Positions 1 through 19,410 of a stretch of 33,871 bases of DNA are shown here, in pieces. The stretch lies in IMG/VR virus record IMGVR_UViG_2579778856_000005. One strand, 5' to 3'. The notes below the pieces were generated by a model. The model had not been told where the DNA came from, ran no database searches, and worked only from the letters and a program-made list of their open reading frames with translations. The position numbers and the translations under genes were made by a program. Source of the DNA: a virus. Taxonomy: Duplodnaviria > Heunggongvirae > Uroviricota > Caudoviricetes. Each line of letters begins with the position of its first letter. The first letter of the stretch is position 1.

Positions 1-1284
1 ATGGAATCCCTAACGTTACAACCCATCGCTCGTGTCGATGGCACTATTAATCTGCCCGGTTCCAAGAGCGTTTCTAACCGCGCTTTATTGCTGGCGGCAT
101 TAGCACACGGCAAAACAGTATTAACCAATCTGCTGGATAGCGATGACGTGCGCCATATGCTGAATGCATTAACAGCGTTAGGGGTAAGCTATACGCTTTC
201 AGCCGATCGTACGCGTTGCGAAATTATCGGTAACGGTGGTCCATTACACGCAGAAAGTGCCCGGGAGTTGTTCCTCGGTAACGCCGGAACGGCAATGCGT
301 CCGCTGGCGGCAGCACTTTGCCTGGGTAGCAATGATATTGTACTGAGCGGTGAACCGCGAATGAAAGAACGCCCGATTGGTCATCTGGTGGATGCGCTGC
401 GCCAGGGCGGGGCGAAGATCACTTACCTGGAACAAGAAAATTATCCGCCATTGCGTTTACAGGGCGGCTTTACTGGCGGCAACGTTGATGTTGATGGCTC
501 CGTTTCCAGCCAGTTCCTCACCGCACTGTTAATGACTGCGCCTCTTGCGCCGGAAGATACGGTGATTCGTATTAAAGGCGATCTGGTTTCTAAACCTTAT
601 ATCGATATCACCCTCAATCTGATGAAGACGTTTGGTGTTGAAATTGAAAATCAGCACTATCAACAATTTGTCGTAAAAGGGGGGCAGTCTTACCAGTCTC
701 CGGGCACTTATTTGGTTGAAGGCGATGCATCTTCGGCTTCTTATTTCCTGGCAGCAGCAGCAATCAGAGGCGGCACTGTAAAAGTGACCGGCATTGGACG
801 CAACAGTATGCAGGGTGATATTCGCTTTGCTGATGTTCTGGAAAAAATGGGCGCGACCATTTGCTGGGGCGATGATTATATTTCCTGCACGCGTGGTGAA
901 CTGAACGCCATTGATATGGATATGAACCATATTCCCGATGCGGCGATGACCATTGCCACCGCGGCGTTATTTGCAAAAGGCACCACCACGCTGCGCAATA
1001 TCTATAACTGGCGTGTTAAAGAGACCGATCGCCTGTTTGCGATGGCAACAGAACTGCGTAAAGTCGGTGCGGAAGTCGAAGAGGGGCATGATTTCATTCG
1101 CATTACGCCACCGGAAAAACTGAAATTTGCTGAGATCGCCACTTATAATGATCACCGGATGGCGATGTGTTTCTCGCTGGTCGCATTATCAGATACGCCT
1201 GTGACGATTCTTGATCCAAAATGTACCGCTAAAACTTTTCCAGACTATTTCGAGCAATTGGCGCGGATAAGTCAACCCGGCTGA
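1..1284 (+). CDS. aroA: 3-phosphoshikimate 1-carboxyvinyltransferase (EPSP synthase), complete
   Basis: 427-aa ORF beginning [37 protein letters not shown] and ending [13 protein letters not shown]; recalled as near-identical to E. coli K-12 AroA over its full length. Not verified by search. Confidence 0.97.
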
Positions 1285-1329
1285 ATGAATAACGGGCGAT
1301 AACATAGACAATCCTTTCTTTTCAAAGAC

Positions 1330-1357
1330 GTCGGCACATTGCCGGCGTTTTTTTTCG
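1330..1357 (+). terminator. Rho-independent terminator downstream of aroA
   Basis: GC-rich inverted repeat cggca-cat-tgccg followed by a run of eight T (gcgttttttttcgg), about 50 nt after the aroA stop. Confidence 0.55.
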
Positions 1358-1461
1358 GACCTTGTGGGGTATTTTTATTAATGGTAGCGTTAATTATCAA
1401 TGTAACTTGTTGATACATAATGTTTATATATAATTAATCAACGGATGATTCACATGAAGAA

Positions 1462-1537
1462 TGATGCGCCGCGCGATAAATGCACTCTATCTTGTGCGAT
1501 AAATGGCATCCACGCGGCGTTTCATTATTTGAAAAAG
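1462..1537. repeat. Putative prophage terminus with Mu R-end-like transposase-binding repeats
   Basis: TGATGCGCCGCGCGATAAATGCA matches about 17 of 22 positions of the recalled phage Mu right-end terminal sequence (TGAAGCGGCGCACGAAAAACGC). Further CGATAAATG and GCGTTTCATTATTTGAAAAAG motifs follow. Recall-based, not verified. Confidence 0.45.
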
Positions 1538-1539
1538 AA

Positions 1540-2112
1540 TTACATTTCAGGTTGCGTTATGACAGTCCCAACAGGGTGATAGCGGTAGATCGTTGACAGT
1601 CCAATATCATAGATAATTGCCAGCCGCTTTCTGTCATACCCTTTCTGGAGCAATCTTGCGATCTGCTCATGCTGCTCCTTCGTCAGTTTCGGGCGACGTC
1701 CTCCAACTCTTCCTTGTGCTCGCGCAGCAGCCAGTCCAGCCAGCGTGCGCTCAACTATCAGTTCACGCTCCATTTCTGCCAGTGCACCCATCATATGAAA
1801 AAAGAACCTTCCCATCGGAGTGCTGGTATCGATTGAATCCGTCAGACTGCGAAAATTGACACCTTTTGCGCGTAGCTCTTCTGTGAGAGCAATGAGGTGT
1901 TTCATTCTTCTACCCAACCGATCCAGCTTCCAGACCACCAATGTATCCCCTCTTTTAAGGCACTTTAAAGCGCGTTTCAGGCCTGGTCGTTCCGACTTGG
2001 TTCCGCTCATTTTGTCCTCAAAAATCTGTTCACATCCTGCGCACATTAATGCATTGCGTTGCAAATCTGTGTTTTGGTCATTTGTTGACACACGTATGTA
2101 GCCAATCAGCAT
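1540..2112 (-). CDS. Serine DNA invertase, Pin/Gin/Cin/Hin family
   Basis: 190 aa from the internal ATG (MLIGYIRVSTNDQNTDLQRNAL...), with the catalytic Ser in the YxRVST motif and a C-terminal HTH. Strongly resembles e14 Pin and Mu Gin as recalled. The track ORF extends 43 codons upstream without an obvious start signal; an AAGGGAG RBS precedes the ATG at 2112. Confidence 0.92.
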   Translation of the reverse strand: MLIGYIRVSTNDQNTDLQRNALMCAGCEQIFEDKMSGTKSERPGLKRALKCLKRGDTLVVWKLDRLGRRMKHLIALTEELRAKGVNFRSLTDSIDTSTPMGRFFFHMMGALAEMERELIVERTLAGLAAARAQGRVGGRRPKLTKEQHEQIARLLQKGYDRKRLAIIYDIGLSTIYRYHPVGTVITQPEM

Positions 2113-2168
2113 TAAAAATACTCCCTTTTGAGTGGTTAAAGTACTGAGATAATGTGGGGAGGATTTGA

Positions 2169-2193
2169 GAGATAAACGTTGGTTTGGGGGAAG
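2169..2193 (+). other. Crossover site A (gix/cix-like) in front of cassette 1
   Basis: AGATAAACG-TT-GGTTTGGGGGAAGG. The half-site on the complementary strand (TTCCCCCAAACC) fits the invertase half-site consensus TTnTCnnAAACC, with a 2-bp core TT. Confidence 0.6.
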
Positions 2194-2612
2194 GCTCTGC
2201 ATTGCCTGTTGGTGTGCCTGTTCCATGGCCCACCGCCACACCGCCAGCAGGCTGGTTAAAGTGCGACGGGCGCGCCTTTACAAAAGAACAATATCCTGTT
2301 CTGGCCAGAGTCTACCCGACCCTCCGTCTTCCCGATTTACGCGGTGAGTTTATCCGTGGATGGGACGACGGGCGAAAAGTGGATACAGGGCGCGATCTGC
2401 TTTCACGGCAGGATGGTACAAGTTTTTCTCATTACGCAGGTAATTTTGACATTGGGTCTGGTCATTCAATCAATAACTATGACCAAATCGTTGACAACCA
2501 ACCTGGATTCTCCCGTTTTTCATTTGCAGGTCCTTCGCGAGGCGATGGGGTTAATTATGTGACCATTCGTCCCCGTAACATTGCGTTTAATTACATCGTA
2601 AGGGCGGCATAG
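2184..2612 (+). CDS. Silent tail-fibre C-terminal cassette 1 (promoterless, no ATG; collar-like conserved block plus variable tip)
   Basis: Open frame starting inside the crossover site. Encodes GEGSALPVGVPVPWPTATPPAGWLKCDGRAF...LPDLRGEFIRGWDDGRKVDTGR, then a unique ~58-aa tip, then the conserved end RPRNIAFNYIVRAA. Confidence 0.75.
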   Translation: MGEGSALPVGVPVPWPTATPPAGWLKCDGRAFTKEQYPVLARVYPTLRLPDLRGEFIRGWDDGRKVDTGRDLLSRQDGTSFSHYAGNFDIGSGHSINNYDQIVDNQPGFSRFSFAGPSRGDGVNYVTIRPRNIAFNYIVRAA

Positions 2613-2633
2613 AAACGTTGGTTTAGGAGAAGG
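2608..2633 (+). other. Crossover site B in front of cassette 2
   Basis: CATAGAAACG-TT-GGTTTAGGAGAAGG; same architecture as site A, with the conserved half abutting the repeated coding block. Confidence 0.6.
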
Positions 2634-2652
2634 CTCGGCGCTACCCGTTGGT

Positions 2653-3126
2653 GTGCCTGTTCCGTGGCCCACCGCCACACCGCCAGCAGGCTGGTTAAAG
2701 TGCGACGGGCGCGCCTTTACAAAAGAACAATATCCTGTTCTGGCCAGAGTCTACCCGACCCTCCGTCTTCCCGATTTGCGCGGTGAGTTTATCCGTGGAT
2801 GGGACGACGGGCGCAAAGTTGATACGGGGCGTTCATTGCTAAGTGGTCAGGCTGCAACATTTATTCGTACAGCTTTGCAGGATTATTACGGTTACGATCT
2901 GAATACTAATGTCAAAGTAGGTATCGCTTTTGCTACTGCTGATTCTGTTATAACCGTTGGAAACCCAGCTAATCCTAAAGCAGGAAATAATAGCGATTAT
3001 GTTCCTGCATCAGCAGATAACTCTATAACGGGTATTCAAAGGACAGCGGAGGATAATTTTACCGGGGCATGGATATCAATGCGCCCCCGCAATGTTGCGT
3101 TTAATTACATCGTAAGGGCCGCATAA
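2653..3126 (+). CDS. Silent tail-fibre C-terminal cassette 2
   Basis: The frame is open from just after the cassette-1 stop through the site (..RNVGLGEGSALPVGVPVPWP..). Same conserved block, unique AT-rich ~82-aa tip, same C-terminal RPRNVAFNYIVRAA. No ATG or RBS. Confidence 0.75.
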   Translation: MPVPWPTATPPAGWLKCDGRAFTKEQYPVLARVYPTLRLPDLRGEFIRGWDDGRKVDTGRSLLSGQAATFIRTALQDYYGYDLNTNVKVGIAFATADSVITVGNPANPKAGNNSDYVPASADNSITGIQRTAEDNFTGAWISMRPRNVAFNYIVRAA

Positions 3127-3147
3127 AAACGTTGGTTTAGGAGAAGG
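3122..3147 (+). other. Crossover site C in front of cassette 3
   Basis: CATAAAAACG-TT-GGTTTAGGAGAAGG. Confidence 0.6.
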
Positions 3148-3166
3148 CTCGGCGCTACCCGTTGGT

Positions 3167-3598
3167 GTGCCTGTTCCGTGGCCCACCGCCACACCGCCAG
3201 CAGGCTGGTTAAAGTGCGACGGGCGCGCCTTTACAAAAGAACAATATCCTGTTCTGGTCAGAGTCTACCCGACCCTCCGTCTTCCCGATTTGCGCGGTGA
3301 GTTTATCCGTGGATGGGACGGTGGTCGCAAGGTTGATACCGGGCGTGCGCTACTTTCATTTCAGGAAGGGACTATCGTATCCGGTTTTGATGATAATGAT
3401 ACCGGAGATATCAGTTCGCTCGGCTCTACACAATACGGATTTGGTGACGCTTTAACCTCTAATCAACTGGGGGTCTTAAATGGCAAAAAGTGGATATTTG
3501 ATGCATCCTCTAAAGGTGCACAAAGATATGACTGGTGGGCTTATGTATCAGCTCGCCCCCGCAATATCGCATTTAACTATATCGTGAGGGCGGCGTGA
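3167..3598 (+). CDS. Silent tail-fibre C-terminal cassette 3
   Basis: Same conserved block, unique ~70-aa tip, C-terminal RPRNIAFNYIVRAA. Confidence 0.75.
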   Translation: MPVPWPTATPPAGWLKCDGRAFTKEQYPVLVRVYPTLRLPDLRGEFIRGWDGGRKVDTGRALLSFQEGTIVSGFDDNDTGDISSLGSTQYGFGDALTSNQLGVLNGKKWIFDASSKGAQRYDWWAYVSARPRNIAFNYIVRAA

Positions 3599-3604
3599 TA
3601 CCGT

Positions 3605-4219
3605 TCAGCCGGCAAGCGCCAGTGGCGCTTCCGGCCAGCTGATTTCAGGTGCCTTGCTGATATCCAGTGCGTTCAGCTCGTCGATATAATCCAGCACGGC
3701 GTTCAGTTTTGCCGTTTCTTCTGGTTTCAGACTGCGACCAGCACGCAGTTTGAGGTTGATAAGATCGACGGACGCCATCGCCTGTTTCACCCGTTGCTGG
3801 CGTTGCTGTCTGGCAACCTCCAGTTCTGCGGCTCGCTGCCGTTCAGTATCGGTTACCCACGCCTCACCGTTCCAGGTATCCCATGGCGTGGCTGGCTGTT
3901 TTGTGGTGGTGTCCGCCGGGTAATCACCCGGTTGGGTAATCAGAACGGGGTTACCGTTCTCCGTGCTGTATACCGTCTCGCCGCGGTGATCAGGCACATG
4001 CTCCCACCCGTTCAGCGTGGCAGTCCGGCAAACCACGTAACCCGAAATTGCTTCCGGCGGTGCATCGGCGCACGAATGTGCCGGAGTACCCACCCCAAGG
4101 GCGAGATACTCCACAGAGGATGAGGTGTATTCCCGGGTTTCCTCGTCATAGTGATATACAGTGATATCGCCCGCTACAGTGGCGATACCGTTTTCATCCA
4201 GAACTGCAGTGTTACTCAT
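3605..4219 (-). CDS. Tail fibre assembly protein (Tfa family)
   Basis: 204 aa immediately downstream of the fibre gene (TAATG overlap). GEAWV motif and C-terminal LNAVLDYIDELNALDISKAPEISWPEAP, typical of lambda Tfa / Mu U-type chaperones. Confidence 0.85.
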   Translation of the reverse strand: MSNTAVLDENGIATVAGDITVYHYDEETREYTSSSVEYLALGVGTPAHSCADAPPEAISGYVVCRTATLNGWEHVPDHRGETVYSTENGNPVLITQPGDYPADTTTKQPATPWDTWNGEAWVTDTERQRAAELEVARQQRQQRVKQAMASVDLINLKLRAGRSLKPEETAKLNAVLDYIDELNALDISKAPEISWPEAPLALAG

Positions 4220-5550
4220 TAAACTGCCCTCACAATGTAATTAAGTGCAATGCTACGGGGTCTGACAGTGATACCCTTCGCATACCCGCTTCTGATAGAG
4301 GTCAGAATAGTAGCCTGCATACCATTGTCTGACATTGCCACGACAGGATCGCTGAATGTTGTCCCGTCCGGCATTTTAAAGCTGCCCTCACGAAGGTCTG
4401 TAATGGAATCTTCATTGTTGAATCCCATGCCGACTATCCCCGAGGTTCCCGTAGTGTCCTGGTTATAATAATCCAGCATTGCTGTTCTTAACAGCGTTGC
4501 CCCTTGTGCGGACAGCAACTTACGTCCTGTATCAACTTTGCGCCCGTCGTCCCATCCACGGATAAACTCACCGCGTAAATCGGGAAGACGGAGGGTCGGG
4601 TAGACTCTGGCCAGAACAGGATATTGTTCTTTTGTAAAGGCGCGCCCGTCGCACTTTAACCAGCCTGCTGGCGGTGTGGCAGTGGGCCACGGAACAGGTA
4701 CACCAACGGGCAGCGCCGAGCCTTCCCCCAAACCAAGGTAATTGAGGACATCTTTTATACTGCCCTTAGCGATAATAGCGCGACCAATAGCTGTAAGGGT
4801 TGCCAGCTCTGCGCGGTCTGCTCCGGTAAAATAAGGCAACCGATCTGCTGCAGTGGCAAGTCCTGCCAGAGCAGTGAGCGTGGCATCTGCCGGTTGTTTT
4901 CCGTTTGCCAGATCGTATGCAGCCTTGACCGCTTTCGGTGTGGCGGCCAGTATTTCAGACGTGCTGTTGATGGCACTGCTCAATTGTACGGTGCCTTTTG
5001 CCGTCAGCGAGGCAGCAGGCACTCCCGTTATCTGACTCCACGGGTGAGTGTGGCTGACGGGCGCCTTGCCGGCTGCAAGGTCGTATGCAGCCTTGACCGC
5101 CTTCGGCGTGGCAGCCTCAGTTTCTGATTGACTGTCCGTGGCGCTGCTCAGTTGTACGGTGCCTTTTGCCGTCAGTGAAGCCGCAGGCACTCCCGTTATC
5201 TGACTCCACGGGTGAGTGTGGCTGGCAGGCGCCTTGCCGGCTGCCAGGTCGTATGCAGCCTTGACCGCTTTTGGTGTGGCGGCCAGCGTTTCAGAGGTGC
5301 TGTTGGTGGCACTGCTCAGTTGGGTGAACCCCTTAGCTGTCAGTGTCGCGTCCGGGTGGTTACGGGAACGTACGTGTTCAGCCAGTGACTGTGCGGCTTC
5401 CTCCGTTTTCTTCTTCAGCCATTTCGTCCTGTTTGCCAGTTGCCGGGGGGCTCGATTTGATATCCCGTCTGCACCACCCAGAACCGGATCTGATGTCTCC
5501 AGTTGATAGATATTTTCTTCCCACTTTTCTGTTTCATTCAGGTTTCCCAT
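4219..5550 (-). CDS. Tail fibre protein (currently expressed copy)
   Basis: 443 aa from the ATG at 5550 (GGGAG RBS). Shaft repeats (TAKGTVQLSSA..ETEAATPKAVKAAYDLA..SHTHPWSQITGVPA). The C-terminal third carries the same collar-like block as the three cassettes and ends RPRSIALNYIVRAV. Confidence 0.9.
   Translation of the reverse strand: MGNLNETEKWEENIYQLETSDPVLGGADGISNRAPRQLANRTKWLKKKTEEAAQSLAEHVRSRNHPDATLTAKGFTQLSSATNSTSETLAATPKAVKAAYDLAAGKAPASHTHPWSQITGVPAASLTAKGTVQLSSATDSQSETEAATPKAVKAAYDLAAGKAPVSHTHPWSQITGVPAASLTAKGTVQLSSAINSTSEILAATPKAVKAAYDLANGKQPADATLTALAGLATAADRLPYFTGADRAELATLTAIGRAIIAKGSIKDVLNYLGLGEGSALPVGVPVPWPTATPPAGWLKCDGRAFTKEQYPVLARVYPTLRLPDLRGEFIRGWDDGRKVDTGRKLLSAQGATLLRTAMLDYYNQDTTGTSGIVGMGFNNEDSITDLREGSFKMPDGTTFSDPVVAMSDNGMQATILTSIRSGYAKGITVRPRSIALNYIVRAV
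4716..4745 (-). other. Crossover site D inside the expressed fibre gene (inverted relative to A-C)
   Basis: Reverse complement reads AATTACC-TT-GGTTTGGGGGAAGG. The conserved half is identical to site A; the site spans codons N-Y-L-G-L-G-E-G at the constant/variable boundary. Confidence 0.6.
4880..5340. repeat. About 170-bp in-frame tandem repeats (three copies) in the tail-fibre shaft
   Basis: gtcgtatgcagccttgaccgc recurs at ~4920, ~5090 and ~5258; the protein motif TAKGTVQLSSA...AATPKAVKAAYDLAAGK..SHTHPWSQITGVPAASL is repeated. Confidence 0.6.
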
Positions 5551-5552
5551 AA

Positions 5553-6131
5553 TCAACTGCTCCCGTGGTTATAACTGCCATCATGGATGGCGGTATTGTT
5601 ATAGCGAATGGCCACAGACTGATACTCCAGGCTGGCCAGATGGCAGCGGGCCGGTGCAAATGCAGCGAGCGTCTGACGCAGCATCGCGGCCTGATCGTTA
5701 GTAATGGGCTGTTTCAGAATAACGCGATAAACCGCCCAGGCGGCTGCATCTCCATGAACAAACAGTCCGTTATAGCTGCGATTGCCGTCGTAACTGAGAC
5801 GACCTGTGCCTTCAATCAGATCCACTTCACCAAAGCCAAAACGGCGGATAACTTCCCGGATTGACCACGGCGTCCCTTTATACCGGTGCAGTTCGATGGC
5901 TGCTTTTATAAGCATGCGGCGAACATCGTCCGATTCCGCCAGCTCCCAGCCATCGCCAGACAGTGAGAACTGCTCGCCCAGCCATGGCAGCGCGGAACTG
6001 TCGACGATATCGACGAGAAAGACCATCAGTACGCTCAGGTCGATGTTATCCAGCCGCCCTGCCAGTCTTCCCAGCGTCCTGAGACTGATATCACCCTCAA
6101 GCGGTGGCGGGAGTTGTAATGGCTCAGTCAT
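5553..6131 (-). CDS. Baseplate/tail protein, P2 gpI-like (Mu gp48-like)
   Basis: 192 aa from an ATG overlapping the upstream stop; sits between the J-like gene and the tail fibre. Family assignment by position and recall. Confidence 0.7.
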   Translation of the reverse strand: MTEPLQLPPPLEGDISLRTLGRLAGRLDNIDLSVLMVFLVDIVDSSALPWLGEQFSLSGDGWELAESDDVRRMLIKAAIELHRYKGTPWSIREVIRRFGFGEVDLIEGTGRLSYDGNRSYNGLFVHGDAAAWAVYRVILKQPITNDQAAMLRQTLAAFAPARCHLASLEYQSVAIRYNNTAIHDGSYNHGSS

Positions 6132-8216: not shown

Positions 8217-9367
8217 TTTTTCTTCTCCTTAATCACCGTCGATGTACTGCCATCCGGGTGATAAACCGTGAGTTTCTGAGTTTTTTGTTTTTTCCCTCTT
8301 GTGACTGGCCCCCGTGCCACTTCCAGCTCTGTGGTGTAGCCGCTGTTACGGTCAAACGCATGGCGGGCAGTGGTTATGAGCCATGGCCCGGATAACTGCC
8401 CAAAACTCACCAGTTCAATTTTGTTGCCTGCTGTCAGTTGAGGTGTTCCCGTCAGCGTCAGGGAGCCGTTCTGCTGGTATTCGTTATGTCTGGCCAGTGC
8501 TGAATCCGCTTTAATCCGGGCACTGTCCGGGTCGCTGACGCGGCTGTTAACTTTAAGTGAGTCAGCGCTGGTAACCTTACCACCTTTGAGCTTTTTGTCG
8601 CTTTCACGGGTACCACCATCAGCTTCGTAGACGATCAGTTTTTTACTGCTGCTTTTCTGGTGTTTTACCTTTGCAGATTTATAGACCCGGTTGATGGTGT
8701 CACGCAGGGAAAAGCGGGCCACATCCTGCGGTTTTAACTGCCTGACCGGCTCCTGACTGCGCAGTGTGGCCAGATGAGAAAAAATCAGCTGGTCACTGAC
8801 CACTTTCACTGCATAACCATACTCGCTGGCCAGCCGGCGCAGAAAACCCACGTCGGTTTCAGCATACTGGGTCACCCGGTCGATTCTGATGGACTCAATG
8901 CTGCCCACCAGTTTCAGCCGGTGCTTTCTGGCAATCCGCCCCGCAACAGCTGCCAGCGTGGTGTTCTCAAAACCACGACTGGTTTTAGTCCGCAGGGCAC
9001 TGTTAACCGAGGTGGCCACCCCACGGATAGAAACAACGGAAGCGGGCGAACTCACTTCGATCTCGTCTATAGAGAACGTACCGCAGGACAGCAGCTTCTC
9101 GCCCTGATAGCCCATTTTCAGCGTCAGCGTGTCACCCTTGCCCGGATACCATTTATCCAGCCAGCGGCCATCGGTGTCGTCCAGCTCCACCTCAATGGTA
9201 TCGGACTCATTTTTGATGTTATCGCTCCAGGTCACACGGGTGACATAAGGCGCGATATCAGAGGTGATGTTTTTCTGCAGATACCACAGAGTGAACACCG
9301 GTGTCAGCACATCGCTGACGCCGGTTAACGCTGATGTGACTTGCGCAGTGCTGTTTATCTCAGCCAT
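8213..9367 (-). CDS. Tail/baseplate hub protein, P2 gpD-like (Mu gp44)
   Basis: 384 aa between the X-like and V-like genes. Confidence 0.8.
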   Translation of the reverse strand: MAEINSTAQVTSALTGVSDVLTPVFTLWYLQKNITSDIAPYVTRVTWSDNIKNESDTIEVELDDTDGRWLDKWYPGKGDTLTLKMGYQGEKLLSCGTFSIDEIEVSSPASVVSIRGVATSVNSALRTKTSRGFENTTLAAVAGRIARKHRLKLVGSIESIRIDRVTQYAETDVGFLRRLASEYGYAVKVVSDQLIFSHLATLRSQEPVRQLKPQDVARFSLRDTINRVYKSAKVKHQKSSSKKLIVYEADGGTRESDKKLKGGKVTSADSLKVNSRVSDPDSARIKADSALARHNEYQQNGSLTLTGTPQLTAGNKIELVSFGQLSGPWLITTARHAFDRNSGYTTELEVARGPVTRGKKQKTQKLTVYHPDGSTSTVIKEKKK

Positions 9368-9567: not shown

Positions 9568-10451
9568 CACACACTCCTCGTCAGTATTCTGGCGGCCATT
9601 GCACTTAATCCCGGAGACATGCGGTTGAATGCTGTTCCGACGGCGTTAAGCTGCCCGGAAACGGTATCCAGAGCACCTGCAATATTTCTTTTGTCCACAC
9701 CACTCAGCGCAGACTGTGCCTGCTGTACATACGTGGCTGCTTCGCTGGCTGTTCTGGCCAGACTGATGGCATCGGGCATGGATTCAGAGAGTGCGTTAAA
9801 CGCCGGAACACTTTTCCCCAGAGCCCCGGAGATATTACCCAGTCCGCTCATCAGCCCCGGCACACGGGTCAGTGCGACAACGGGGTTATCCTTCATTTTC
9901 TGTGTCACCCGAACGGCGCTGATAGTGGTCTGGAGTACAGACTGCGCCTGTTTCGCATAGTTGACGCCGTTGCGGATGAACTGCGCCACCCCTGAAGGTG
10001 AAGGTATGGCACCGGAGACCGCCCCGACACCCGGGAGCTTCGTGCGTATTGCCGGTGGTTGCAGAGGATTTTTCGGGTCACCGGTGTATTCCCGGAGAGA
10101 CACGGTGGCACTGACAGCCAGCACGTTGCCGGTACTGTCAGTCTGCTCGCTGGTTGCAGTCACATCGGTGATCACGAACCAGCCGCGATAGTCACCGTTG
10201 CCGAAGACCAGCGCCAGTGCCTGATGGGCTTTCATGGCTGTTCGCAGTCTCGCCAGCTCCACATCGGGTACACAATAATGCTGATGGAAAACCAGAGTTA
10301 TCTGGATTTCGTCCAGCCTGTCGCCGACGAACTGCAGACCAGGCTTACCCCCGATGCGGGCATGCTCCGCATAATCGACGCCGAACGTGGCCTCGAAGCC
10401 GTCCCAGTAGGTAATCAGCTCAAACTCAATATCACCCAGTACGGCAAACAT
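9567..10451 (-). CDS. Tail protein with P2 gpU-like N-terminal domain and a long Ala/Ser-rich C-terminal extension
   Basis: 294 aa; the N-terminal ~125 aa (GKPGLQFVG..ITL..ALALVFGNGDYRGWFVITDVTATSEQ) resembles the gpU tail-terminator family. Intact only in this copy. Confidence 0.7.
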   Translation of the reverse strand: MFAVLGDIEFELITYWDGFEATFGVDYAEHARIGGKPGLQFVGDRLDEIQITLVFHQHYCVPDVELARLRTAMKAHQALALVFGNGDYRGWFVITDVTATSEQTDSTGNVLAVSATVSLREYTGDPKNPLQPPAIRTKLPGVGAVSGAIPSPSGVAQFIRNGVNYAKQAQSVLQTTISAVRVTQKMKDNPVVALTRVPGLMSGLGNISGALGKSVPAFNALSESMPDAISLARTASEAATYVQQAQSALSGVDKRNIAGALDTVSGQLNAVGTAFNRMSPGLSAMAARILTRSV

Positions 10452-13402
10452 CAGCGGTACTCCTTACGTTGTTTCTGAGCCAGCAGACGCTCCAGCATTT
10501 TTTCCAGCTCATGCAGACTCATATTCAGGGCACCAGTCAGTCCTGCAGGCGCTGTGGTTTCCCTGCCATTGAGGAAAAACTGAGGATTAAAGCTGACCTG
10601 GATACCACCAGACGTTCCACCGCCGGTTGCAGCTGCACCACGGCCTGAATATCCGGCAGCCAGGATTTCAGGCGAGGGGATACGGGGAACATCCGGTGTC
10701 ATCTCATTTGCCAGACGTTGCCCTGGTAAAATCGATGCCCGGGTGGAGAGCGGAATAGCGGGCATGGAAGACAAACTATTGATTACGGCTCCGATCGCAT
10801 TTTTAGCAGACGACATAAACCCATTGATATCGGGCAACGGCATACTGAAGCGAACACCTGAAGTGTTATCCCGTATTTCTGGCCCCTGAATGCTCACGGG
10901 CATTCTGGGGAGCAGTTCACTGGCCATTCGCTGCCCGGCCAGAGCTGCAAGCGGAGTGGTCCGCTGCAGGCCAATGGCGGCCCCCTGCGCGATATTGTCA
11001 CCAAAGCCCATAAACACGCGGCTCGGCGAATGAATGCCCAGCTTTTCGCTGAACCAGCCACTGATGCTGTCACCCATTCCGGTTACACTGGATTTGAGCG
11101 ACTCCCATTTGTTTTTGATACCGTTAATCAGACCGTCGACAAGATGGCCACCGAAGTCGGTGAACTTTGCCGGCAGATCAACACCAAGATATTTCAGCGC
11201 AGCTGCAAAGGCTTTATAGAGCAGACCTGCCGGCGACCAGTTAATCAGCAGCTTACCAGTTCCCGCGATACCGCCGTTAAAGGCTTCCTGAATGTCAGCC
11301 CAGCACTGTTTAAACCAGCTACTGATGCTGTCACCCATTCCGGTTACACTGGATTTGAGCGACCCCCATTTGTTTTTGATACCGTTAATCAGACCGTCGA
11401 TAAGATGGCCACCGAAGTCGGTGAACTTTGCCGGCAGAGCAACGCCGAAATATTTCAGCGCAGCCGCAAAGGCTTTATAGAGCAGGCCTGCCGGCGACCA
11501 GTTAATCAGCAACTTACCAATTCCCACAATGCCGCCGTTAAAGGCTTCCTGAATGTCAGCCCAGCGCTGTTTAAACCAACCACTGACAGCCCCCCAGTTG
11601 CGGTAGATAAGGTAAGCTGCTGTCGCGACAGCGGTGATAACGAGACCGATGGGATTCATCATCAGCGCTCGCCCAATCCAGAGAACGGCACGTGCAGCGC
11701 TCATAAAACCGCGAACGAGGCTGCCCGCCAGAACTTTGCTGAGTTTCAGTCCTCCGCTGGTCAGTCGGCTGAATCCAGTGACAAGCCAGCGTAATTTGCC
11801 ACCTTCTCCGAGTGCGGTAGTCAGTCGATGCCAGTTGGTCCGGAGTAAAACAGTAGTTTTCCAGACGTTCACAAAGGGGGAAATAAGGAGATTCAGCCCC
11901 AGTTTGAGACCAATAGTCGCTATCTTAATCGCAAGGAGCGCACTGATGAGCTTAAAAGCCCCACTGACAAATTGCGGGTGAGTCGCTACCCAGTGTTTTG
12001 TCCCCTGAATGAGTGGGAGCAGTTCCTGAGTCAGAGAAATAAAAGATGGAGCTAATTGATCGCCCAGCGTAATTGCCAGATCGCGACTGCTGACCATAAG
12101 TGTTTTAGTGGCTTCAAGGGGAGATTTCAGCCGCTGATCATAAGCACTGGCAAGCAAATCGTTATCCGCAGCCCTGAGAGCACCGGCACGGATCTCTCGA
12201 TATCTGTCCATGTTGGCCAGCATCGGGCGGATAAATGCCATGACCTGCATATCCGCGAACATATCGCCCAGACCAAAGTTTTTCGCCAGAGCCTGAAGTG
12301 CCTCATCTCTTGCCGTATCATTCTTTATTTTCATGGCTGATTTGAAGCCGGCCAGCGCTTCGGGGCTTTTGGCATTGAGGTAACGTTCTATAACACTCAA
12401 CATCCCTTCAATCGGAGAGATCCCCGCAGCTTTATAACTCGCAATAGATCCCTGCAAATCAATACCCAGATCAGCAAACTGTTTCTGAGTATCGCGGGCA
12501 AAAATTTTGGTAAGAAAGTTTTTAAAATTATTGGCTGCTTCGTCGGTGGAACCTGCACCGATTTTTGCTATCTGGAGACTGGCCCCGATTTCAGCAACAG
12601 CCTCTTTTCCACTGGCAATACCCGCCATCATTGGGGCCAGGGACTGCATCCACTTGACCTGATCCGGGATTTCAAATGACCCCTGGTCACCGGCATAAGC
12701 CATAATATTCTGAACGGCACCAAAATCTCTGGCCGCGCCTTTCAGGGAGTTTTGCCAGACTGCGGCCACTTTTGCCCAGTCCTGAGCAGACGTGCGTGTT
12801 GCCGTTGCCGCGCGGGCAATATCCGGCATCAGAAAACCGATATCTGACACATTATCAATATTGTCGCTGATGAGTGAACCCACCGCCTCCTGCAGCTCAT
12901 CCTGATACTGATTGTATTTAAGCGCCCAGCCTTTTATCTGTCCGGCAAGTGCATCCCGCGTTTTATTGTCATATTTTGCGGTGATCGACATATCAATCAT
13001 TTTGTCCTGAAAAGACATGGACTGCTGAACGGCAGGGGAAACCGTATGATAAACAGTCTGTGCCATGCCATACGCTTCAATCCCCTGACCATACAGCGCC
13101 ATGCGGTTAGCTTTCAGCGCATCACTGGTAGCGGATGCCGCTGACAGACGGCGCTGCTGGCGCTCAATTTGCTCCATGGTGCGGCTTACCCGCAGCAGCT
13201 CGCTGTTGAGATGCTGCATCCGGGAAGAACCCAGTTGACCATAACGTTCTGTTGCACGGGTTAAAGCGTTCTGACGTTCCTGCAGGCGGCGTGAGGTATC
13301 GCTCAGGGAATCAAGCGCACGGCGGGTACCGCTCATTGCAGAACGGAATGTGCTGCCAATCATCCCGCCGATAACAACGCCGACTGAAAACTGTCCCGAC
13401 AT
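10451..13402 (-). CDS. Tail tape measure protein (copy 1)
   Basis: 983 aa, N-terminal coiled coil, internal 86-aa tandem repeat, GGAGG RBS. Confidence 0.9.
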   Translation of the reverse strand: MSGQFSVGVVIGGMIGSTFRSAMSGTRRALDSLSDTSRRLQERQNALTRATERYGQLGSSRMQHLNSELLRVSRTMEQIERQQRRLSAASATSDALKANRMALYGQGIEAYGMAQTVYHTVSPAVQQSMSFQDKMIDMSITAKYDNKTRDALAGQIKGWALKYNQYQDELQEAVGSLISDNIDNVSDIGFLMPDIARAATATRTSAQDWAKVAAVWQNSLKGAARDFGAVQNIMAYAGDQGSFEIPDQVKWMQSLAPMMAGIASGKEAVAEIGASLQIAKIGAGSTDEAANNFKNFLTKIFARDTQKQFADLGIDLQGSIASYKAAGISPIEGMLSVIERYLNAKSPEALAGFKSAMKIKNDTARDEALQALAKNFGLGDMFADMQVMAFIRPMLANMDRYREIRAGALRAADNDLLASAYDQRLKSPLEATKTLMVSSRDLAITLGDQLAPSFISLTQELLPLIQGTKHWVATHPQFVSGAFKLISALLAIKIATIGLKLGLNLLISPFVNVWKTTVLLRTNWHRLTTALGEGGKLRWLVTGFSRLTSGGLKLSKVLAGSLVRGFMSAARAVLWIGRALMMNPIGLVITAVATAAYLIYRNWGAVSGWFKQRWADIQEAFNGGIVGIGKLLINWSPAGLLYKAFAAALKYFGVALPAKFTDFGGHLIDGLINGIKNKWGSLKSSVTGMGDSISSWFKQCWADIQEAFNGGIAGTGKLLINWSPAGLLYKAFAAALKYLGVDLPAKFTDFGGHLVDGLINGIKNKWESLKSSVTGMGDSISGWFSEKLGIHSPSRVFMGFGDNIAQGAAIGLQRTTPLAALAGQRMASELLPRMPVSIQGPEIRDNTSGVRFSMPLPDINGFMSSAKNAIGAVINSLSSMPAIPLSTRASILPGQRLANEMTPDVPRIPSPEILAAGYSGRGAAATGGGTSGGIQVSFNPQFFLNGRETTAPAGLTGALNMSLHELEKMLERLLAQKQRKEYR
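11040..11585. repeat. 258-bp in-frame tandem repeat inside the tape measure gene (two full copies plus a partial third)
   Basis: ccagc(c/t)actgatgctgtcacccattccggttacactggatttgagcga recurs at 11055 and 11313; the protein repeat is WFKQ(R/C)WADIQEAFNGG...SVTGMGDSIS. Confidence 0.8.
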
Positions 13403-13477
13403 AGTGGTTAACCTCCGGGGAAGGTGAAAAGACGTGAGGGGATAACGCAGAACAGCCGCTACTGGCGGCTGTCTGTA

Positions 13478-13895
13478 CTATGATTTGTCGCCGTACTCGC
13501 TTTTGATTTGCTCTTCAGCCTGCTCCAGCCACATCTCCAGATCGTCAGTATCGAGGGCATCAATCTCCCCCGGCTGAAACCGGAACCATCTCGCCAGCAG
13601 CCCCTGCGCCTGCGTCAGCGCCCTGGTTGCTCTCACCCATCCCCGTGATGAGCTGAAATCGTTTCTGTAACTGCAGGTAATCAGCCAGATCCATATTGTC
13701 GAGATCTTCCGGGAGAAGACCAGTACTGCGGGCAATCAGCGGTTCGTCCCAGTCTGCCGGGTTTTTGCTGATTTTGCGCACCTGCTTCAGGTCTTTTACC
13801 GTCAGGCGTTTCAGTTCAACCAGCTCAATTCTGGTGCCTGCAGCAGTGGTGAAGGGATAAGACAATTTAAAAGTATCGGATGGGGTCTGTGACAT
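13478..13895 (-). CDS. Tail assembly chaperone, putative frameshifted long form (GT / E+E' analogue)
   Basis: A second ORF (13478-13735) overlaps the 3' end of the chaperone ORF in the +1 (equivalently -2) frame and extends it by ~28 aa of plausible protein sequence (..IDALDTDDLEMWLEQAEEQIKSEYGDKS). Confidence 0.5.
13560..13895 (-). CDS. Tail assembly chaperone (lambda G / P2 E analogue), short form
   Basis: 111 aa, acidic, between tube and tape measure; AGGAG RBS. Confidence 0.8.
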   Translation of the reverse strand: MSQTPSDTFKLSYPFTTAAGTRIELVELKRLTVKDLKQVRKISKNPADWDEPLIARSTGLLPEDLDNMDLADYLQLQKRFQLITGMGESNQGADAGAGAAGEMVPVSAGGD

Positions 13896-13949
13896 GATTG
13901 TGCTCCTGTGTAAGTTCAGGGCAGTATGTCGGGAGAAGCGCGTGACGGA

Positions 13950-13990
13950 TATTAAAGGAGATTAAGAAGAAGGGGCCGGAGCCCCTGTGA
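13950..13990 (-). terminator. Putative intrinsic terminator/attenuator between tube region and chaperone
   Basis: Perfect palindrome AGGGGC-CGGA-GCCCCT (13971-13986) followed on the minus-strand transcript by a T-rich run (ttcttcttaatctccttt). Confidence 0.5.
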
Positions 13991-13992
13991 TG

Positions 13993-14274
13993 TCAGCAAG
14001 TGCGAAACCCCTTGCAGTTACGCAGGAAAGCGATGAGAAGCGTCTTTCCCTCAGATTTGCCGATGCCGGAGAACCAGTGGTCGGGAGGCTCCCATGCTTC
14101 AATCAAATCCGCCAGTTTGCGGGCCTTTGAACGTGTGCAGTCAATCGGGTCATTGGTTTTACGGGTATTAAAAAGGGTTTCCACCCCCGGAATATCAAGG
14201 AGGGTAAACCACGTACCATTTGACATGCCCAGTGCCGCACATCGTCCTCCTTTATCCGTCAGTTCAACACTCAC
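13993..14274 (-). CDS. Hypothetical small protein between tube and chaperone
   Basis: 93-codon open frame in a 380-bp gap; start codon ambiguous (GTG at 14274, or an internal ATG with a distant AAGGAGGA). Confidence 0.35.
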   Translation of the reverse strand: MSVELTDKGGRCAALGMSNGTWFTLLDIPGVETLFNTRKTNDPIDCTRSKARKLADLIEAWEPPDHWFSGIGKSEGKTLLIAFLRNCKGFRTC

Positions 14275-14276
14275 CG

Positions 14277-14798
14277 TCAGCCCCCGATATTGATACGGTA
14301 GTCAGTCAGTTGATCAACACCGCCGACCCGGAAGATGTTGGCCAGATAGTCCAGTTGCAGCAGCTCTTCACCATCCAGTACCTGTCTGATATACGTGCAG
14401 GTGAAGCTACTGGAGAACTCGGCGTTCTCGTGCTGTTTGAACGTCCCCAGCGGGTTCTTCTTGAACATAATCGTCAGGAAGGTGACCAGCGGGATTTCGT
14501 CAATCAGCCCCTGCGAGCTGTAGCGCTGGACGCTGGAACGACACTGCAGTGCCAGCGACCTGTACGGGTTCGCGGCAGACAGCATCGCATCGCGGTAAAA
14601 GCTGTTCCATTTGATTTCGCCTTCCAGCTTGTCAAAACCAGCCGGGAGTTCCACCTTACCCACCATCCCCAGCGCCTTGTGTTCCTGCATAATCATGGAG
14701 ACATCGGGGAGTTTAACTTCCTCAGCCCGTCCCAGCAGGTTAGTACCATCCAGATAGATGTTGGCATTCGTGATGCGGTTTATCTCAATCTTTGACAT
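14277..14798 (-). CDS. Tail tube protein (copy 1)
   Basis: 173 aa, ATGA overlap with the sheath stop; contractile-tail tube family by size and position. Confidence 0.9.
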   Translation of the reverse strand: MSKIEINRITNANIYLDGTNLLGRAEEVKLPDVSMIMQEHKALGMVGKVELPAGFDKLEGEIKWNSFYRDAMLSAANPYRSLALQCRSSVQRYSSQGLIDEIPLVTFLTIMFKKNPLGTFKQHENAEFSSSFTCTYIRQVLDGEELLQLDYLANIFRVGGVDQLTDYRINIGG

Positions 14799-16089
14799 CA
14801 GTTGCCCCCTTTCAGGGTTAACAGGTATTCCGAGGTGATCTCAGTCTCAAACGTCAGTCGCTCCAGCGGCGGTGGTGGCGTATATTTGTAGCTCAGCAAC
14901 AGGTGCCCGGCGGCCAGCTCCGTCTCCGGATTGCGGGCCGGATCAAACCAGCAACGGAAGCCCAGTACCGCACCATCACCAGTCATTTTGCGACCGTAGG
15001 CGTTGACCGACTCCGTCAGTGCATCAATCAGCGCCTGAGTAATCGGCATGTCGATGTACTGCTGGCTGAAATAACGAATGGACTCGTTGATCACATCACC
15101 GGTGCGGCGAACGTTCTCAAAGTTACGCATATGGGTGACCGTTGGCCATGCTGCCGTCCGGTTACCCCACAGACGAAGGCCGCTGCCGTAACTGCTGAAT
15201 ACCGTGGTGATCCCCTGTTCGTTAAGCAGGTTCACCTCACTCTGCGGGTCATCAATCATCGCGGACAGCTGGCGCTCCACGCCGGTGATCCCCAGAATCT
15301 CCTGATTGGAGGATGACCACCAGTAGCCCTTGTCCAGATCGACTCTGGCACGCAGACCTGCTGCACGCTGGCTGAGCGGCTCCAGACGCTCTGTGTTTGT
15401 CACCGGGTCATATACCTTCACATGCGGATAGCACAGACGGACGCGGTCGGAGCTGGTATTGAAGTTGATGGTGCCTTCCGGGCCACGACCTGCCAGAGCC
15501 TGTGCAAAGGTGGTACCGACAGGCGCATCAATGTAGGTTACCGCGCCCAGCTTCTCTGCCATGGCGATAAGCTCAACTGCGACACTCTTCTGGGTGCAGA
15601 ACACCGGCGCAATCAGAATTTTGGCGAAATAGCCGTACAGGTTGAAGCTGTCGTTAAGCAGCTTCATGCCGGTTCGGTTTCCGGCGCTGTTCACCCCGCC
15701 GATGATGTCCGCCGCAGTCACCTTCGACGGGTCCGCGTACTCATAGCTCACCTTCACGCTGCCACCGGCCTCAATAGCCTTGCCCAGGTTCGTGAGCACA
15801 CCCGCCTGCGCATCAACACGGTAGTCCGTGTTCGCCGTGTGGGTGGTGCTGCCTTCACTGTTTTTCACCACCACATTAGCGACAACCGGATGCGCCAGTC
15901 TGGCCTGCCCTGTCGATTTGTCAAAGGTAACCACCTCATCCTCGATCGCCGTTTTATGTTTCGCCGGGTCGAGGACGTTAATGACCAGAACGGTGCCTGC
16001 ACCATGGTCATAAATCGCATCCAGCGCCTGCGGAATGGTAAAGCCGGTGAACTGGCTGCCAAATGCCGCTGCGTCTTTCTCAGACAGGC
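14798..16089 (-). pseudogene. Tail sheath protein, 5'-truncated fragment (lacks ~45 N-terminal codons)
   Basis: Matches the intact sheath at 20649-22076 up to the duplication junction at 16089, then reads into out-of-frame U-derived sequence. Confidence 0.8.
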
Positions 16090-16302
16090 TGTTCGCAGTC
16101 TCGCCAGCTCCACATCGGGTACACAATAATGCTGATGGAAAACCAGAGTTATCTGGATTTCGTCCAGCCTGTCGCCGACGAACTGCAGACCAGGCTTACC
16201 CCCGATGCGGGCATGCTCCGCATAATCGACGCCGAACGTGGCCTCGAAGCCGTCCCAGTAGGTAATCAGCTCAAACTCAATATCACCCAGTACGGCAAAC
16301 AT
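16090..16302 (-). pseudogene. gpU-like tail protein, 3'-truncated fragment (first 71 codons)
   Basis: Identical to the N-terminus of the 9567-10451 protein (MFAVLGDIEFELITYWDGFEATFGVDYAEHARIGGKPGLQFVG...) then fused out of frame to sheath antisense sequence. Confidence 0.8.
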
Positions 16303-19253
16303 CAGCGGTACTCCTTACGTTGTTTCTGAGCCAGCAGACGCTCCAGCATTTTTTCCAGCTCATGCAGACTCATATTCAGGGCACCAGTCAGTCCTGCAGG
16401 CGCTGTGGTTTCCCTGCCATTGAGGAAAAACTGAGGATTAAAGCTGACCTGGATACCACCAGACGTTCCACCGCCGGTTGCAGCTGCACCACGGCCTGAA
16501 TATCCGGCAGCCAGGATTTCAGGCGAGGGGATACGGGGAACATCCGGTGTCATCTCATTTGCCAGACGTTGCCCTGGTAAAATCGATGCCCGGGTGGAGA
16601 GCGGAATAACGGGCATGGAAGACAAACTATTGATTACGGCTCCGATCGCATTTTTAGCAGACGACATAAACCCATTGATATCGGGCAACGGCATACTGAA
16701 GCGAACACCTGAAGTGTTATCCCGTATTTCTGGCCCCTGAATGCTCACGGGCATTCTGGGGAGCAGTTCACTGGCCATTCGCTGCCCGGCCAGAGCTGCA
16801 AGCGGAGTGGTCCGCTGCAGGCCAATGGCGGCCCCCTGCGCGATATTGTCACCAAAGCCCATAAACACGCGGCTCGGCGAATGAATGCCCAGCTTTTCGC
16901 TGAACCAGCCACTGATGCTGTCGCCCATTCCGGTTACACTGGATTTGAGCGACTCCCATTTGTTTTTGATACCGTTAATCAGACCATCGACAAGATGGCC
17001 ACCGAAGTCGGTAAACTTTGCCGGCAGATCAACACCAAGATATTTCAGCGCAGCTGCAAAGGCTTTATAGAGCAGACCTGCCGGCGACCAGTTAATCAGC
17101 AGCTTACCAGTTCCCGCGATACCGCCGTTAAAGGCTTCCTGAATGTCAGCCCAGCATTGTTTAAACCAGCTACTGATGCTGTCACCCATTCCGGTTACAC
17201 TGGATTTGAGCGACCCCCATTTGTTTTTGATACCGTTAATCAAACCGTCGATAAGATGGCCACCGAAGTCGGTGAACTTTGCCGGCAGAGTAACGCCGAA
17301 ATATTTCAGCGCAGCCGCAAAGGCTTTATAGAGCAGGCCTGCCGGCGACCAGTTAATCAGCAGCTTACCAGTTCCCGCGATACCGCCGTTAAAGGCTTCC
17401 TGAATGTCAGCCCAGCGCTGTTTAAACCAGCCACTGACTGCCCCCCAGTTGCGGTAGATAAGGTAAGCTGCTGCCGCGACAGCGGTGATAACGAGACCGA
17501 TGGGATTCATCATCAGCGCTCGCCCAATCCAGAGAACGGCACGTGCAGCGCTCATAAAACCGCGAACGAGGCTGCCCGCCAGAACTTTGCTGAGTTTCAG
17601 TCCTCCGCTGGTCAGTCGGCTGAATCCAGTGACAAGCCAGCGTAATTTGCCACCTTCTCCGAGTGCGGTAGTCAGTCGATGCCAGTTGGTCCGGAGTAAA
17701 ACAGCAGTTTTCCAGACGTTCACAAAGGGGGAAATAAGGAGATTCAGCCCCAGTTTGAGACCAACAGTCGCTATCTTAATCGCAAGGAGCGCACTGATGA
17801 GCTTAAAAGCCCCACTGACAAATTGCGGGTGAGTCGCCACCCAGTGTTTTGTCCCCTGAATGAGTGGGAGCAAGTCCTGAGTCAGAGAAATAAAAGATGG
17901 AGCTAATTGATCGCCCAGCGTAATTGCCAGATCGCGACTGCTGACCATAAGTGTTTTAGTGGCTTCAAGGGGAGATTTCAGCCGCTGATCATAAGCACTG
18001 GCAAGCAAATCGTTATCCGCAGCCCTGAGAGCACCGGCACGGATCTCTCGATATCTGTCCATGTTGGCCAGCATCGGGCGGATAAATGCCATGACCTGCA
18101 TATCCGCGAACATATCGCCCAGACCAAAGTTTTTCGCCAGAGCCTGAAGTGCCTCATCTCTTGCCGTATCATTCTTTATTTTCATGGCTGATTTGAAGCC
18201 GGCCAGCGCTTCGGGGCTTTTGGCATTGAGGTAACGTTCTATAACACTCAACATCCCTTCAATCGGAGAGATCCCCGCAGCTTTATAACTCGCAATAGAT
18301 CCCTGCAAATCAATACCCAGATCAGCAAACTGTTTCTGAGTATCGCGGGCAAAAATTTTGGTAAGAAAGTTTTTAAAATTATTGGCTGCTTCGTCGGTGG
18401 AACCTGCACCGATTTTTGCTATCTGGAGACTGGCCCCGATTTCAGCAACAGCCTCTTTTCCACTGGCAAGACCCGCCATCATTGGGGCCAGGGACTGCAT
18501 CCACTTGACCTGATCCGGGATTTCAAATGACCCCTGGTCACCGGCATAAGCCATAATATTCTGAACGGCACCAAAATCTCTGGCCGCACCTTTCAGGGAG
18601 TTTTGCCAGACTGCGGCCACTTTTGCCCAGTCCTGAGCAGACGTGCGTGTTGCCGTTGCCGCGCGGGCAATATCCGGCATCAGAAAACCGATATCTGACA
18701 CATTATCAATATTGTCGCTGATGAGTGAACCCATCGCCTCCTGCAGCTCATCCTGATACTGATTGTATTTAAGCGCCCAGCCTTTTATCTGTCCGGCAAG
18801 TGCATCCCGCGTTTTATTGTCATATTTTGCGGTGATCGACATATCAATCATTTTGTCCTGAAAAGACATGGACTGCTGAACGGCAGGGGAAACCGTATGA
18901 TAAACAGTCTGTGCCATGCCATACGCTTCAATCCCCTGACCATACAGCGCCATGCGGTTAGCTTTCAGCGCATCACTGGTAGCGGATGCCGCTGACAGAC
19001 GGCGCTGCTGGCGCTCAATTTGCTCCATGGTGCGGCTTACCCGCAGCAGCTCGCTGTTGAGATGCTGCATCCGGGAAGAACCCAGTTGACCATAACGTTC
19101 TGTTGCACGGGTTAAAGCGTTCTGACGTTCCTGCAGGCGGCGTGAGGTATCGCTCAGGGAATCAAGCGCACGGCGGGTACCGCTCATTGCAGAACGGAAT
19201 GTGCTGCCAATCATCCCGCCGATAACAACGCCGACTGAAAACTGTCCCGACAT
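16302..19253 (-). CDS. Tail tape measure protein (copy 2)
   Basis: 983 aa; about 9 amino-acid differences from copy 1. Confidence 0.9.
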   Translation of the reverse strand: MSGQFSVGVVIGGMIGSTFRSAMSGTRRALDSLSDTSRRLQERQNALTRATERYGQLGSSRMQHLNSELLRVSRTMEQIERQQRRLSAASATSDALKANRMALYGQGIEAYGMAQTVYHTVSPAVQQSMSFQDKMIDMSITAKYDNKTRDALAGQIKGWALKYNQYQDELQEAMGSLISDNIDNVSDIGFLMPDIARAATATRTSAQDWAKVAAVWQNSLKGAARDFGAVQNIMAYAGDQGSFEIPDQVKWMQSLAPMMAGLASGKEAVAEIGASLQIAKIGAGSTDEAANNFKNFLTKIFARDTQKQFADLGIDLQGSIASYKAAGISPIEGMLSVIERYLNAKSPEALAGFKSAMKIKNDTARDEALQALAKNFGLGDMFADMQVMAFIRPMLANMDRYREIRAGALRAADNDLLASAYDQRLKSPLEATKTLMVSSRDLAITLGDQLAPSFISLTQDLLPLIQGTKHWVATHPQFVSGAFKLISALLAIKIATVGLKLGLNLLISPFVNVWKTAVLLRTNWHRLTTALGEGGKLRWLVTGFSRLTSGGLKLSKVLAGSLVRGFMSAARAVLWIGRALMMNPIGLVITAVAAAAYLIYRNWGAVSGWFKQRWADIQEAFNGGIAGTGKLLINWSPAGLLYKAFAAALKYFGVTLPAKFTDFGGHLIDGLINGIKNKWGSLKSSVTGMGDSISSWFKQCWADIQEAFNGGIAGTGKLLINWSPAGLLYKAFAAALKYLGVDLPAKFTDFGGHLVDGLINGIKNKWESLKSSVTGMGDSISGWFSEKLGIHSPSRVFMGFGDNIAQGAAIGLQRTTPLAALAGQRMASELLPRMPVSIQGPEIRDNTSGVRFSMPLPDINGFMSSAKNAIGAVINSLSSMPVIPLSTRASILPGQRLANEMTPDVPRIPSPEILAAGYSGRGAAATGGGTSGGIQVSFNPQFFLNGRETTAPAGLTGALNMSLHELEKMLERLLAQKQRKEYR
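16891..17436. repeat. 258-bp tandem repeat inside tape measure gene, copy 2
   Basis: Same repeat as 11040-11585, offset by 5,851 bp. Confidence 0.8.
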
Positions 19254-19410
19254 AGTGGTTAACCTCCGGGGAAGGTGAAAAGACGTGAGGGGATAACGCA
19301 GAACAGCCGCTACTGGCGGCTGTCTGTACTATGATTTGTCGCCGTACTCGCTTTTGATTTGCTCTTCAGCCTGCTCCAGCCACATCTCCAGATCGTCAGT
19401 ATCGAGGGCA

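Follow-up and report, generated by a model that had tools for sequence, protein, structure and literature searches.

A prophage terminus in the third codon of Escherichia coli ycaL that very probably belongs to a BcepMu-type transposable phage

The aroA side of the junction and the rebuilt empty site

The window, by which we mean the whole 33,871-nucleotide stretch of DNA that was analysed (IMG/VR record IMGVR_UViG_2579778856_000005), opens with aroA and passes through the beginning of ycaL into the late genes of a prophage (Table 1). The aroA terminator at 1324 was not recovered by a simple terminator scan, and the spacer that follows it (1356-1453), which holds the ycaL 5' region now cut off from the ycaL body, contains a single weak sigma-70-like match (1394-1421) that shuffled sequences equal in score. 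ATGAAGAAT is present at 1454-1462, and the original prediction had taken its ATG at 1454 as a possible start of the downstream host gene; the start of the ycaL coding sequence in Nissle 1917 bears this out. The base composition shifts at 1462 from AT-rich host DNA to TGATGCGCCGCGCGATAAATGCA..., with 1461 as the last host base and T1462 as the first base of the prophage (TGATGCGCC...), 177 bp past the aroA stop codon and thus where a prophage end had been proposed (~180 bp downstream of aroA).

Table 1. Features of the window, with the basis on which each was placed
Feature	Position	Strand	Basis
aroA, 3-phosphoshikimate 1-carboxyvinyltransferase	1-1284	+	427-aa ORF; same annotation in JJ1887, Nissle and others
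aroA intrinsic terminator	1324-1355	+	Hairpin 1324-1352, then U-run; RNA fold -19.1 kcal/mol, z -3.1
Host intergenic DNA, AT-rich, with ycaL 5' region	1356-1453	+	Identical to the unbroken aroA-ycaL spacer in phylogroup B2-type genomes
ycaL first 8 nt, ATGAAGAA	1454-1461	+	Same ATG opens the ycaL CDS in Nissle 1917
6-bp target-site duplication, aroA-side copy, GAAGAA	1456-1461	+	Second copy directly after the ...AATCA end in JJ1887; one copy in the empty site
Prophage terminus, tail-fibre/invertase side (BcepMu 'right' end)	1462-1506	+	Starts 5'-TG; copies at other sites align from 1462
Prophage body, very probably Bcepmuvirus-type, as far as the window reaches	1462-33871	-	Tail, head and lysis genes
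Small serine DNA invertase, Gin/Hin/Cin-like, 190 aa	1540-2112	-	Pfam Resolvase 8e-51 and HTH_7; annotated 'recombinase family protein'
Invertible tail-fibre region	2126-5556	.	Repeat families D1, I1-I3; ORFs; JJ1887 annotation
Three alternative tail-fibre C-terminal cassettes, in a row	about 2126-3598	+	
Tail-fibre assembly gene	3605-4219	-	
Tail-fibre gene	4219-5556	-	

The window ends before the repressor, transposase, ATPase, Gam, GemA and Mor genes, and the transposase and the second prophage end were read from the near-identical genomes of JJ1887 and strain 4/1-1, in both of which the complete element measures 37,045 bp. With the exception of one internal duplication, the window is colinear with positions 2071-28115 of the JJ1887 locus (L001) at ~99.5% identity. 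The aroA-side junction in JJ1887 reads ...CACATGAAGAA/TGATGCGCC... and the ycaL-side junction ...CAAGTCTAATCA/GAAGAATACTAAATTATTG..., where the slash marks the boundary. When both JJ1887 flanks were joined after removal of the element and one GAAGAA, the resulting 601-bp empty site was 100% identical to sequence in Nissle 1917, ATCC 11775, NU14 and many other E. coli, and it was matched at a coverage of at least 80% in 4,921 genomes. The insertion point lies within codon 3 of ycaL, with the staggered cut on ycaL nucleotides 3-8, and the proposed interruption of the start of the next host gene is therefore real. Position 1462 is a prophage boundary rather than a point within continuous host DNA, since copies of the element at other sites, in ~240 genomes, also align from 1462.

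Distribution, insertion sites and target duplications

We searched a set of 5,426 complete E. coli genomes. The whole stretch 1200-1700 was found in 360 of them, JJ1887 included, and the ycaL-side junction in 358, essentially the same set as that with the aroA-side junction; the carriers of the aroA/ycaL insertion include ST131-labelled records. A site-survey probe consisting of 25 bp of flank and the first 179 bp of the element matched 597 genomes, ~360 at aroA/ycaL and ~240 elsewhere, on chromosomes as well as on plasmids (14 plasmid locations), and some genomes carry two to three copies of the element. Copies that lack the aroA flank align from 1462, or up to three bases earlier through chance matches in the flank. 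These copies lie in ssuB, yehY, phnP, aceK, lom of another prophage, and other genes.

Both junctions were read at five sites other than ycaL, which gives six insertions in total. The termini are TG...CA in all six, and each insertion is flanked by a 6-bp target duplication that differs from the other five: GAAGAA at ycaL, TCTCGA at ssuB, ATGTGC at lom, GCAGGG at yehY, CCTCGC at phnP and CATCGC at aceK. Since T1462 is the exact point at which copies with unlike flanks diverge, an earlier start of the element is impossible, and a duplication of 5 bp, which the original prediction had anticipated, is excluded.

The position shared by the ~360 genomes and the serine recombinase gene next to the prophage end might point to a site-specifically integrated prophage with the aroA-ycaL spacer as its att site. 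Against such a reading, the same end occurs at many unrelated loci and on plasmids, with unlike 6-bp flanks and no common core; the recombinase is a 190-aa invertase that appears to serve inverted repeats of the tail-fibre genes; and vertical descent of the aroA/ycaL insertion within a single clade accounts for the common position. JJ1887 was examined for the marks of such integration at the other prophage end: the annotation of the element lists no integrase, and its far end holds no att core. We therefore consider site-specific integration exceedingly improbable, refuted as it is by the independent insertions, and the proposal of a transposable prophage stands on its many unrelated sites, TG...CA ends and short duplications.

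Some of the individual copies and records deserve separate mention. The copy in strain CE10 (L007 35159-36336), inserted in lom of another prophage, is in turn interrupted by an IS3-family element, contains several genes with internal stops and appears to be decaying. In CP025887.1 ('Escherichia phage 503046'), non-phage flank directly abuts TGATGCGCC... at 8300-8549; this record, although filed as a complete phage genome, is a prophage cut-out with host sequence and not a virion genome, and it served here as one more insertion site only, not as evidence on virion ends. PV468777, a record named 'Entero_P88', covers the serC-aroA-invertase-tail-fibre region and likewise includes the host genes serC and aroA. 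Reversible inversions in a prophage called 'Entero_P88' are described in a preprint on wound isolates of ST131, which also lists a Bcepmuvirus prophage. We searched the literature on PhiKM, on ycaL/aroA prophages and on Mu-like prophages in ST131 and found nothing specific to an aroA/ycaL insertion.

Gene order, transposase and terminal repeats of the element

The late genes of the element (lysis, head, P2-like tail and tail fibre) lie on the minus strand in JJ1887 and run toward the aroA end, while an HTH repressor region occupies the centre and the early genes are read from there toward ycaL on the plus strand. The early and late units thus diverge, with GemA and Mor at the far end beside ycaL and the tail fibre at the other end, and the order is colinear with that of BcepMu: Mor-GemA ... 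transposase, repressor, then lysis, head, P2-like tail and tail fibre, as in the BcepMu/phiE255/PhiKM group. In Mu, by contrast, early and late genes point in one direction and c-ner-A-B occupies the left end. The Mu gene order implied by the original prediction was consequently not found, as the early region is inverted relative to Mu and the far end consists of GemA and Mor.

The invertase gene is ~69-75% identical at the DNA level to those of P2-like and P1/P7-like phages, and it is transcribed toward the prophage end, with its stop codon 78 bp from the terminus. The prediction that an invertase would sit at the extreme end of the prophage without a mom-like gene holds, since this 78-bp gap leaves no room for com/mom. 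Each of the three cassettes next to the invertase opens with 230-270 nt that lie in inverted orientation to 4466-4739 (-) in the tail-fibre gene and are 89-93% complementary to it, and the cassettes look like a multiple-inversion system on which the invertase at 1540-2112 would act. One cassette is missing from JJ1887, which has no counterpart of 2833-3078, and the window is 514 bp longer across the region. A Dam-type methylase is also encoded by the element. Scanning the whole window against Rfam gave no match.

The internal duplication that distinguishes the window from JJ1887 is a 5,851-bp tandem repeat in the tail module (10236-16089 and 16087-21940). It covers part of a gpU-like gene, the tape measure, tail chaperones, tube and most of the sheath, and yields two 983-aa tape-measure ORFs and one truncated sheath ORF. 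The two copies differ at 27 of 5,854 positions, mainly in the tape-measure gene, and the duplication junction was absent from all 5,426 complete E. coli genomes. The duplication is either an artefact of assembly or a private rearrangement that perhaps arose when a second, related prophage recombined with this one. It would raise the size of the element to about 43 kb, which probably exceeds a headful.

The JJ1887 transposase is a DDE enzyme of 589 aa in which Pfam finds the rve core alone. Over 581 aa it shares 68% identity (813 bits) with BcepMu gp09, annotated in its record as 'Tn552/IS1604 rve transposase', and the enzyme of Escherichia phage PhiKM (PQ738613, filed under Bcepmuvirus) matches it at 100% identity. 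A tblastn search of a phage collection matched BcepMu, phiE255 and their relatives, with no Mu-group phage among the matches listed. The transposases of Pseudomonas phages JD18, JBD25 and relatives are 57% identical to it; these phages of the B3/Tn552 type (JBD25, JD18, Fc02 and others) are siphoviruses with other structural modules, and Tn552 itself is a small transposon without phage genes. Adjoining the transposase, as in BcepMu, phiE255 and PhiKM, is an ExeA-like AAA+ ATPase (Pfam AAA_22, 3.6e-20) that matches PHROG 296, 'DNA transposition protein', at 8e-93; BcepMu gp08 and MuB belong to the same PHROG. Gam, GemA and Mor are also among the early genes in JJ1887. A transposase A/B pair had been expected beyond the right edge of the window, and a transposase/ATPase pair does lie there, although it is of BcepMu type, in the middle of the element, and not MuA/MuB.

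The transposase family is that termed Tn552/B3-related in the literature. Phages with a B3/Tn552-family transposase leave a 6-bp scar, compared to 5 bp for Mu, and all Mu- and B3-like phages described have TG-CA ends (PMC8705779), so that the Pseudomonas phages resemble the element in both published features. BcepMu relatives have TG...CA ends and an rve core (PMC2628397).

The two prophage ends, read inward from TG, are TGATGCGCCGCGCGATAAATGCACTCTATCTTGTGCGATAAATGG at the invertase end and, in JJ1887, TGATTAGACTTGAGATAAATGACAGGGAATAAGTGAGATATTTATGG at the Mor end. At the invertase end GCGATAAAT forms a direct repeat at 1473-1481 and 1496-1504, 23 bp apart, so that CGATAAATG recurs in a second copy 23 bp further in from the terminus, and these two positions are the only matches to GMGATAWWT in the whole window. 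The motif G(C/A)GATA(A/T)(A/T)T occupies offsets 12-20 and 35-43 of both ends of the element and of both ends of BcepMu, and together with the TG...CA termini it is a feature shared with the BcepMu/phiE255/PhiKM group; the phiE255 record is circularly permuted and opens at the terminase gene, which means that termini are not readable from the ends of that record. The transposase of Tn552 binds two 23-bp direct repeats per end, and we infer that the motifs spaced by 23 bp are putative transposase-binding sites. In the copies in SaT040 and strain 3347558 (L006 37897-38880; L009 3561-4557), Mor is separated from the terminus by two additional genes (210 aa and 53 aa). The Mor-end sequence of these copies is divergent (TGATCAGACATGAGATAAATGAAGG...) and also keeps the pair of motifs in register, and in these copies the Mor end looks like a cargo slot.

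Given the original proposal of Mu-type terminal repeats, we compared the ends with those of Mu. Compared with the reverse-complemented right terminus of Mu (NC_000929), TGATGCGCCGCGCGATAAATGCA, which starts at 1462, shows 17 identities over 22 positions, as had been claimed, and 17 over 23, and among the ~67,700 23-mers of the window this one is the best match to Mu attR, with a single other 23-mer reaching 16. Since an unrelated 23-mer elsewhere in the JJ1887 locus reaches 18 of 23, the score of 17 matters only because it is located exactly at an independently mapped terminus; at such a pre-specified position, a chance resemblance is unlikely. Over the terminal 23 bp the invertase end matches Mu attR slightly better than the BcepMu right end (17 versus 16 identities), while over the terminal 45 bp BcepMu is closer (28 identities versus 22), because both of its repeats share the 23-bp register. 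The Mor end matches Mu at 11 of 23 positions, and both ends match attL at 9 of 23, compared to the 17 of 23 for the invertase end and attR. Mu R2 also contains CGATAAATG, with the motif copies one base out of register with Mu attR; the Mu sites are spaced by 22 bp rather than the 23 bp of this element, which accounts for the shift. The 17 of 22 match and the two occurrences of GCGATAAAT are real, but the likeness to Mu has its limits, and the ends of BcepMu fit better over 45 bp. A further motif, GCGTTTCATTATTTGAAAAAG (1517-1537), also noted in the original prediction, was considered as a site resembling the Mu consensus. Neither the other end nor BcepMu has anything equivalent, and the motif was set aside; within it, GTTTCAYT alone fits what we take to be the Mu site consensus.

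The same comparison bears on whether the window holds a true Mu-type right end (Muvirus: Mu, D108 and SfMu), with a MuA/MuB pair, a 5-bp duplication and the Mu gene order. The attR match and the presence of CGATAAATG in Mu R2, albeit one base out of register, would favour this assignment, as would the membership of the transposase and the ATPase in the PHROGs of MuA (310) and MuB (296), and Gam, GemA, Mor and the end-adjacent Gin-like invertase are reminiscent of Mu, which is likewise transposable, ends in TG...CA and has an invertible tail-fibre segment with an invertase near the same end. Yet the PHROG 310 match starts at profile position 130 in this transposase versus position 6 in MuA, and BLASTP against MuA gave no similarity (E = 0.48). 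Pfam detected no Mu-specific DNA-binding or C-terminal domains, in contrast with MuA, which has an N-terminal part and Mu-specific domains, and a PDB sequence search with the transposase returned weak retroviral-integrase core matches alone and no MuA chain. The lack of Mu-group phages among the listed tblastn matches, the inverted early region with GemA/Mor at the other end, and the missing com/mom, which in Mu lies between gin and the end, also distinguish the element from Mu. A Muvirus is thus very unlikely, being refuted by the 6-bp duplication in all six insertions and by the identity of the transposase; 'Mu-like' is a fair description in the broad sense, whereas membership of the Mu group is not.

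Taken together, these data make it very probable that 1462 is the invertase-side terminus of a 37-kb prophage of a BcepMu-type (Bcepmuvirus) transposable myovirus that entered ycaL by DDE transposition. The E. coli element differs from BcepMu in that BcepMu has an acyltransferase beyond the tail fibre where this element has the Gin-like invertase and a multi-cassette invertible fibre tip, in the added Dam-type methylase, and in its enterobacterial host. In the mechanism that we propose, the transposase would bind the two G(C/A)GATA(A/T)(A/T)T motifs spaced by 23 bp at each end and pair the ends, nick at the terminal CA-3' and join the ends to target phosphates staggered by 6 bp, with the ATPase delivering the target DNA. 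As in the accounts of Mu, B3 and BcepMu, the genome would be copied by replicative transposition, and headful packaging would include attached host DNA. Past 33871, the window's own genome would be expected to read ...TCTAATCA/GAAGAATACT into ycaL.

It is also conceivable, if somewhat unlikely, that the identification is right but that this copy is a fixed, immobile relic with non-functional ends that is passed on by vertical descent only. Its fixation at one site in ~360 genomes would fit such a relic, as would the tail-gene duplication of the window copy, which other complete genomes do not share. However, JJ1887 retains the full set of transposition genes and both ends intact, near-identical copies at many other sites indicate recent mobility of the phage type, and some genomes hold more than one copy.

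Consequences for ycaL and for annotation

After the insertion, the ycaL promoter region, the ribosome-binding site and ATGAAGAA remain beside aroA, and the body of ycaL lies 37 kb away behind the Mor end. The orphaned ycaL start reads into the phage terminus as a chimeric ORF of 41 codons, 1454-1579 (+) (MKNDAPRDKCTLSCAINGIHAAFHYLKKNYISGCVMTVPTG), and the ycaL promoter, if it drove transcription here, would yield RNA antisense to the invertase 3' end. In lysogens, the ycaL product in RefSeq is a protein of 260 aa whose ATT start lies in the prophage terminus (IYLKSNQ-KNTKLLL...; JJ1887 L001 39096-39878), an annotation that conceals the native promoter, ribosome-binding site and ATG 37 kb away. 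A promoter scan found no convincing outward promoter at the Mor end, with one 9/12 match 80 bp upstream of the end. From this arrangement, little or no expression of ycaL would be expected in the clade with the insertion. Its product is presumably a lipoprotein protease in the quality control of outer-membrane proteins. We consider it doubtful, although worth stating, that the insertion is a lineage marker that alters host biology, in which case the clade that includes ST131 records would be a natural ycaL hypomorph and the antisense transcript could reduce switching of the tail fibre.

Public records and the literature already document this type of phage, its footprint and its occurrence in ST131 genomes, and the finding leaves general knowledge of transposable phages unchanged. 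Its main value is correct annotation: a 'P88-like' (PV468777) or 'Mu-like' label becomes a Bcepmuvirus-type transposable phage with exact ends, and the fixed ends give a disrupted ycaL start instead of the automatic ycaL with an ATT start. The case also serves as a worked example of how a 5-bp or a 6-bp scar tells Mu-type from BcepMu/B3-type transposable prophages, and the aroA/TG...CA/ycaL junction with its GAAGAA duplication is a clean marker of the clade, present in records that include ST131-labelled ones.
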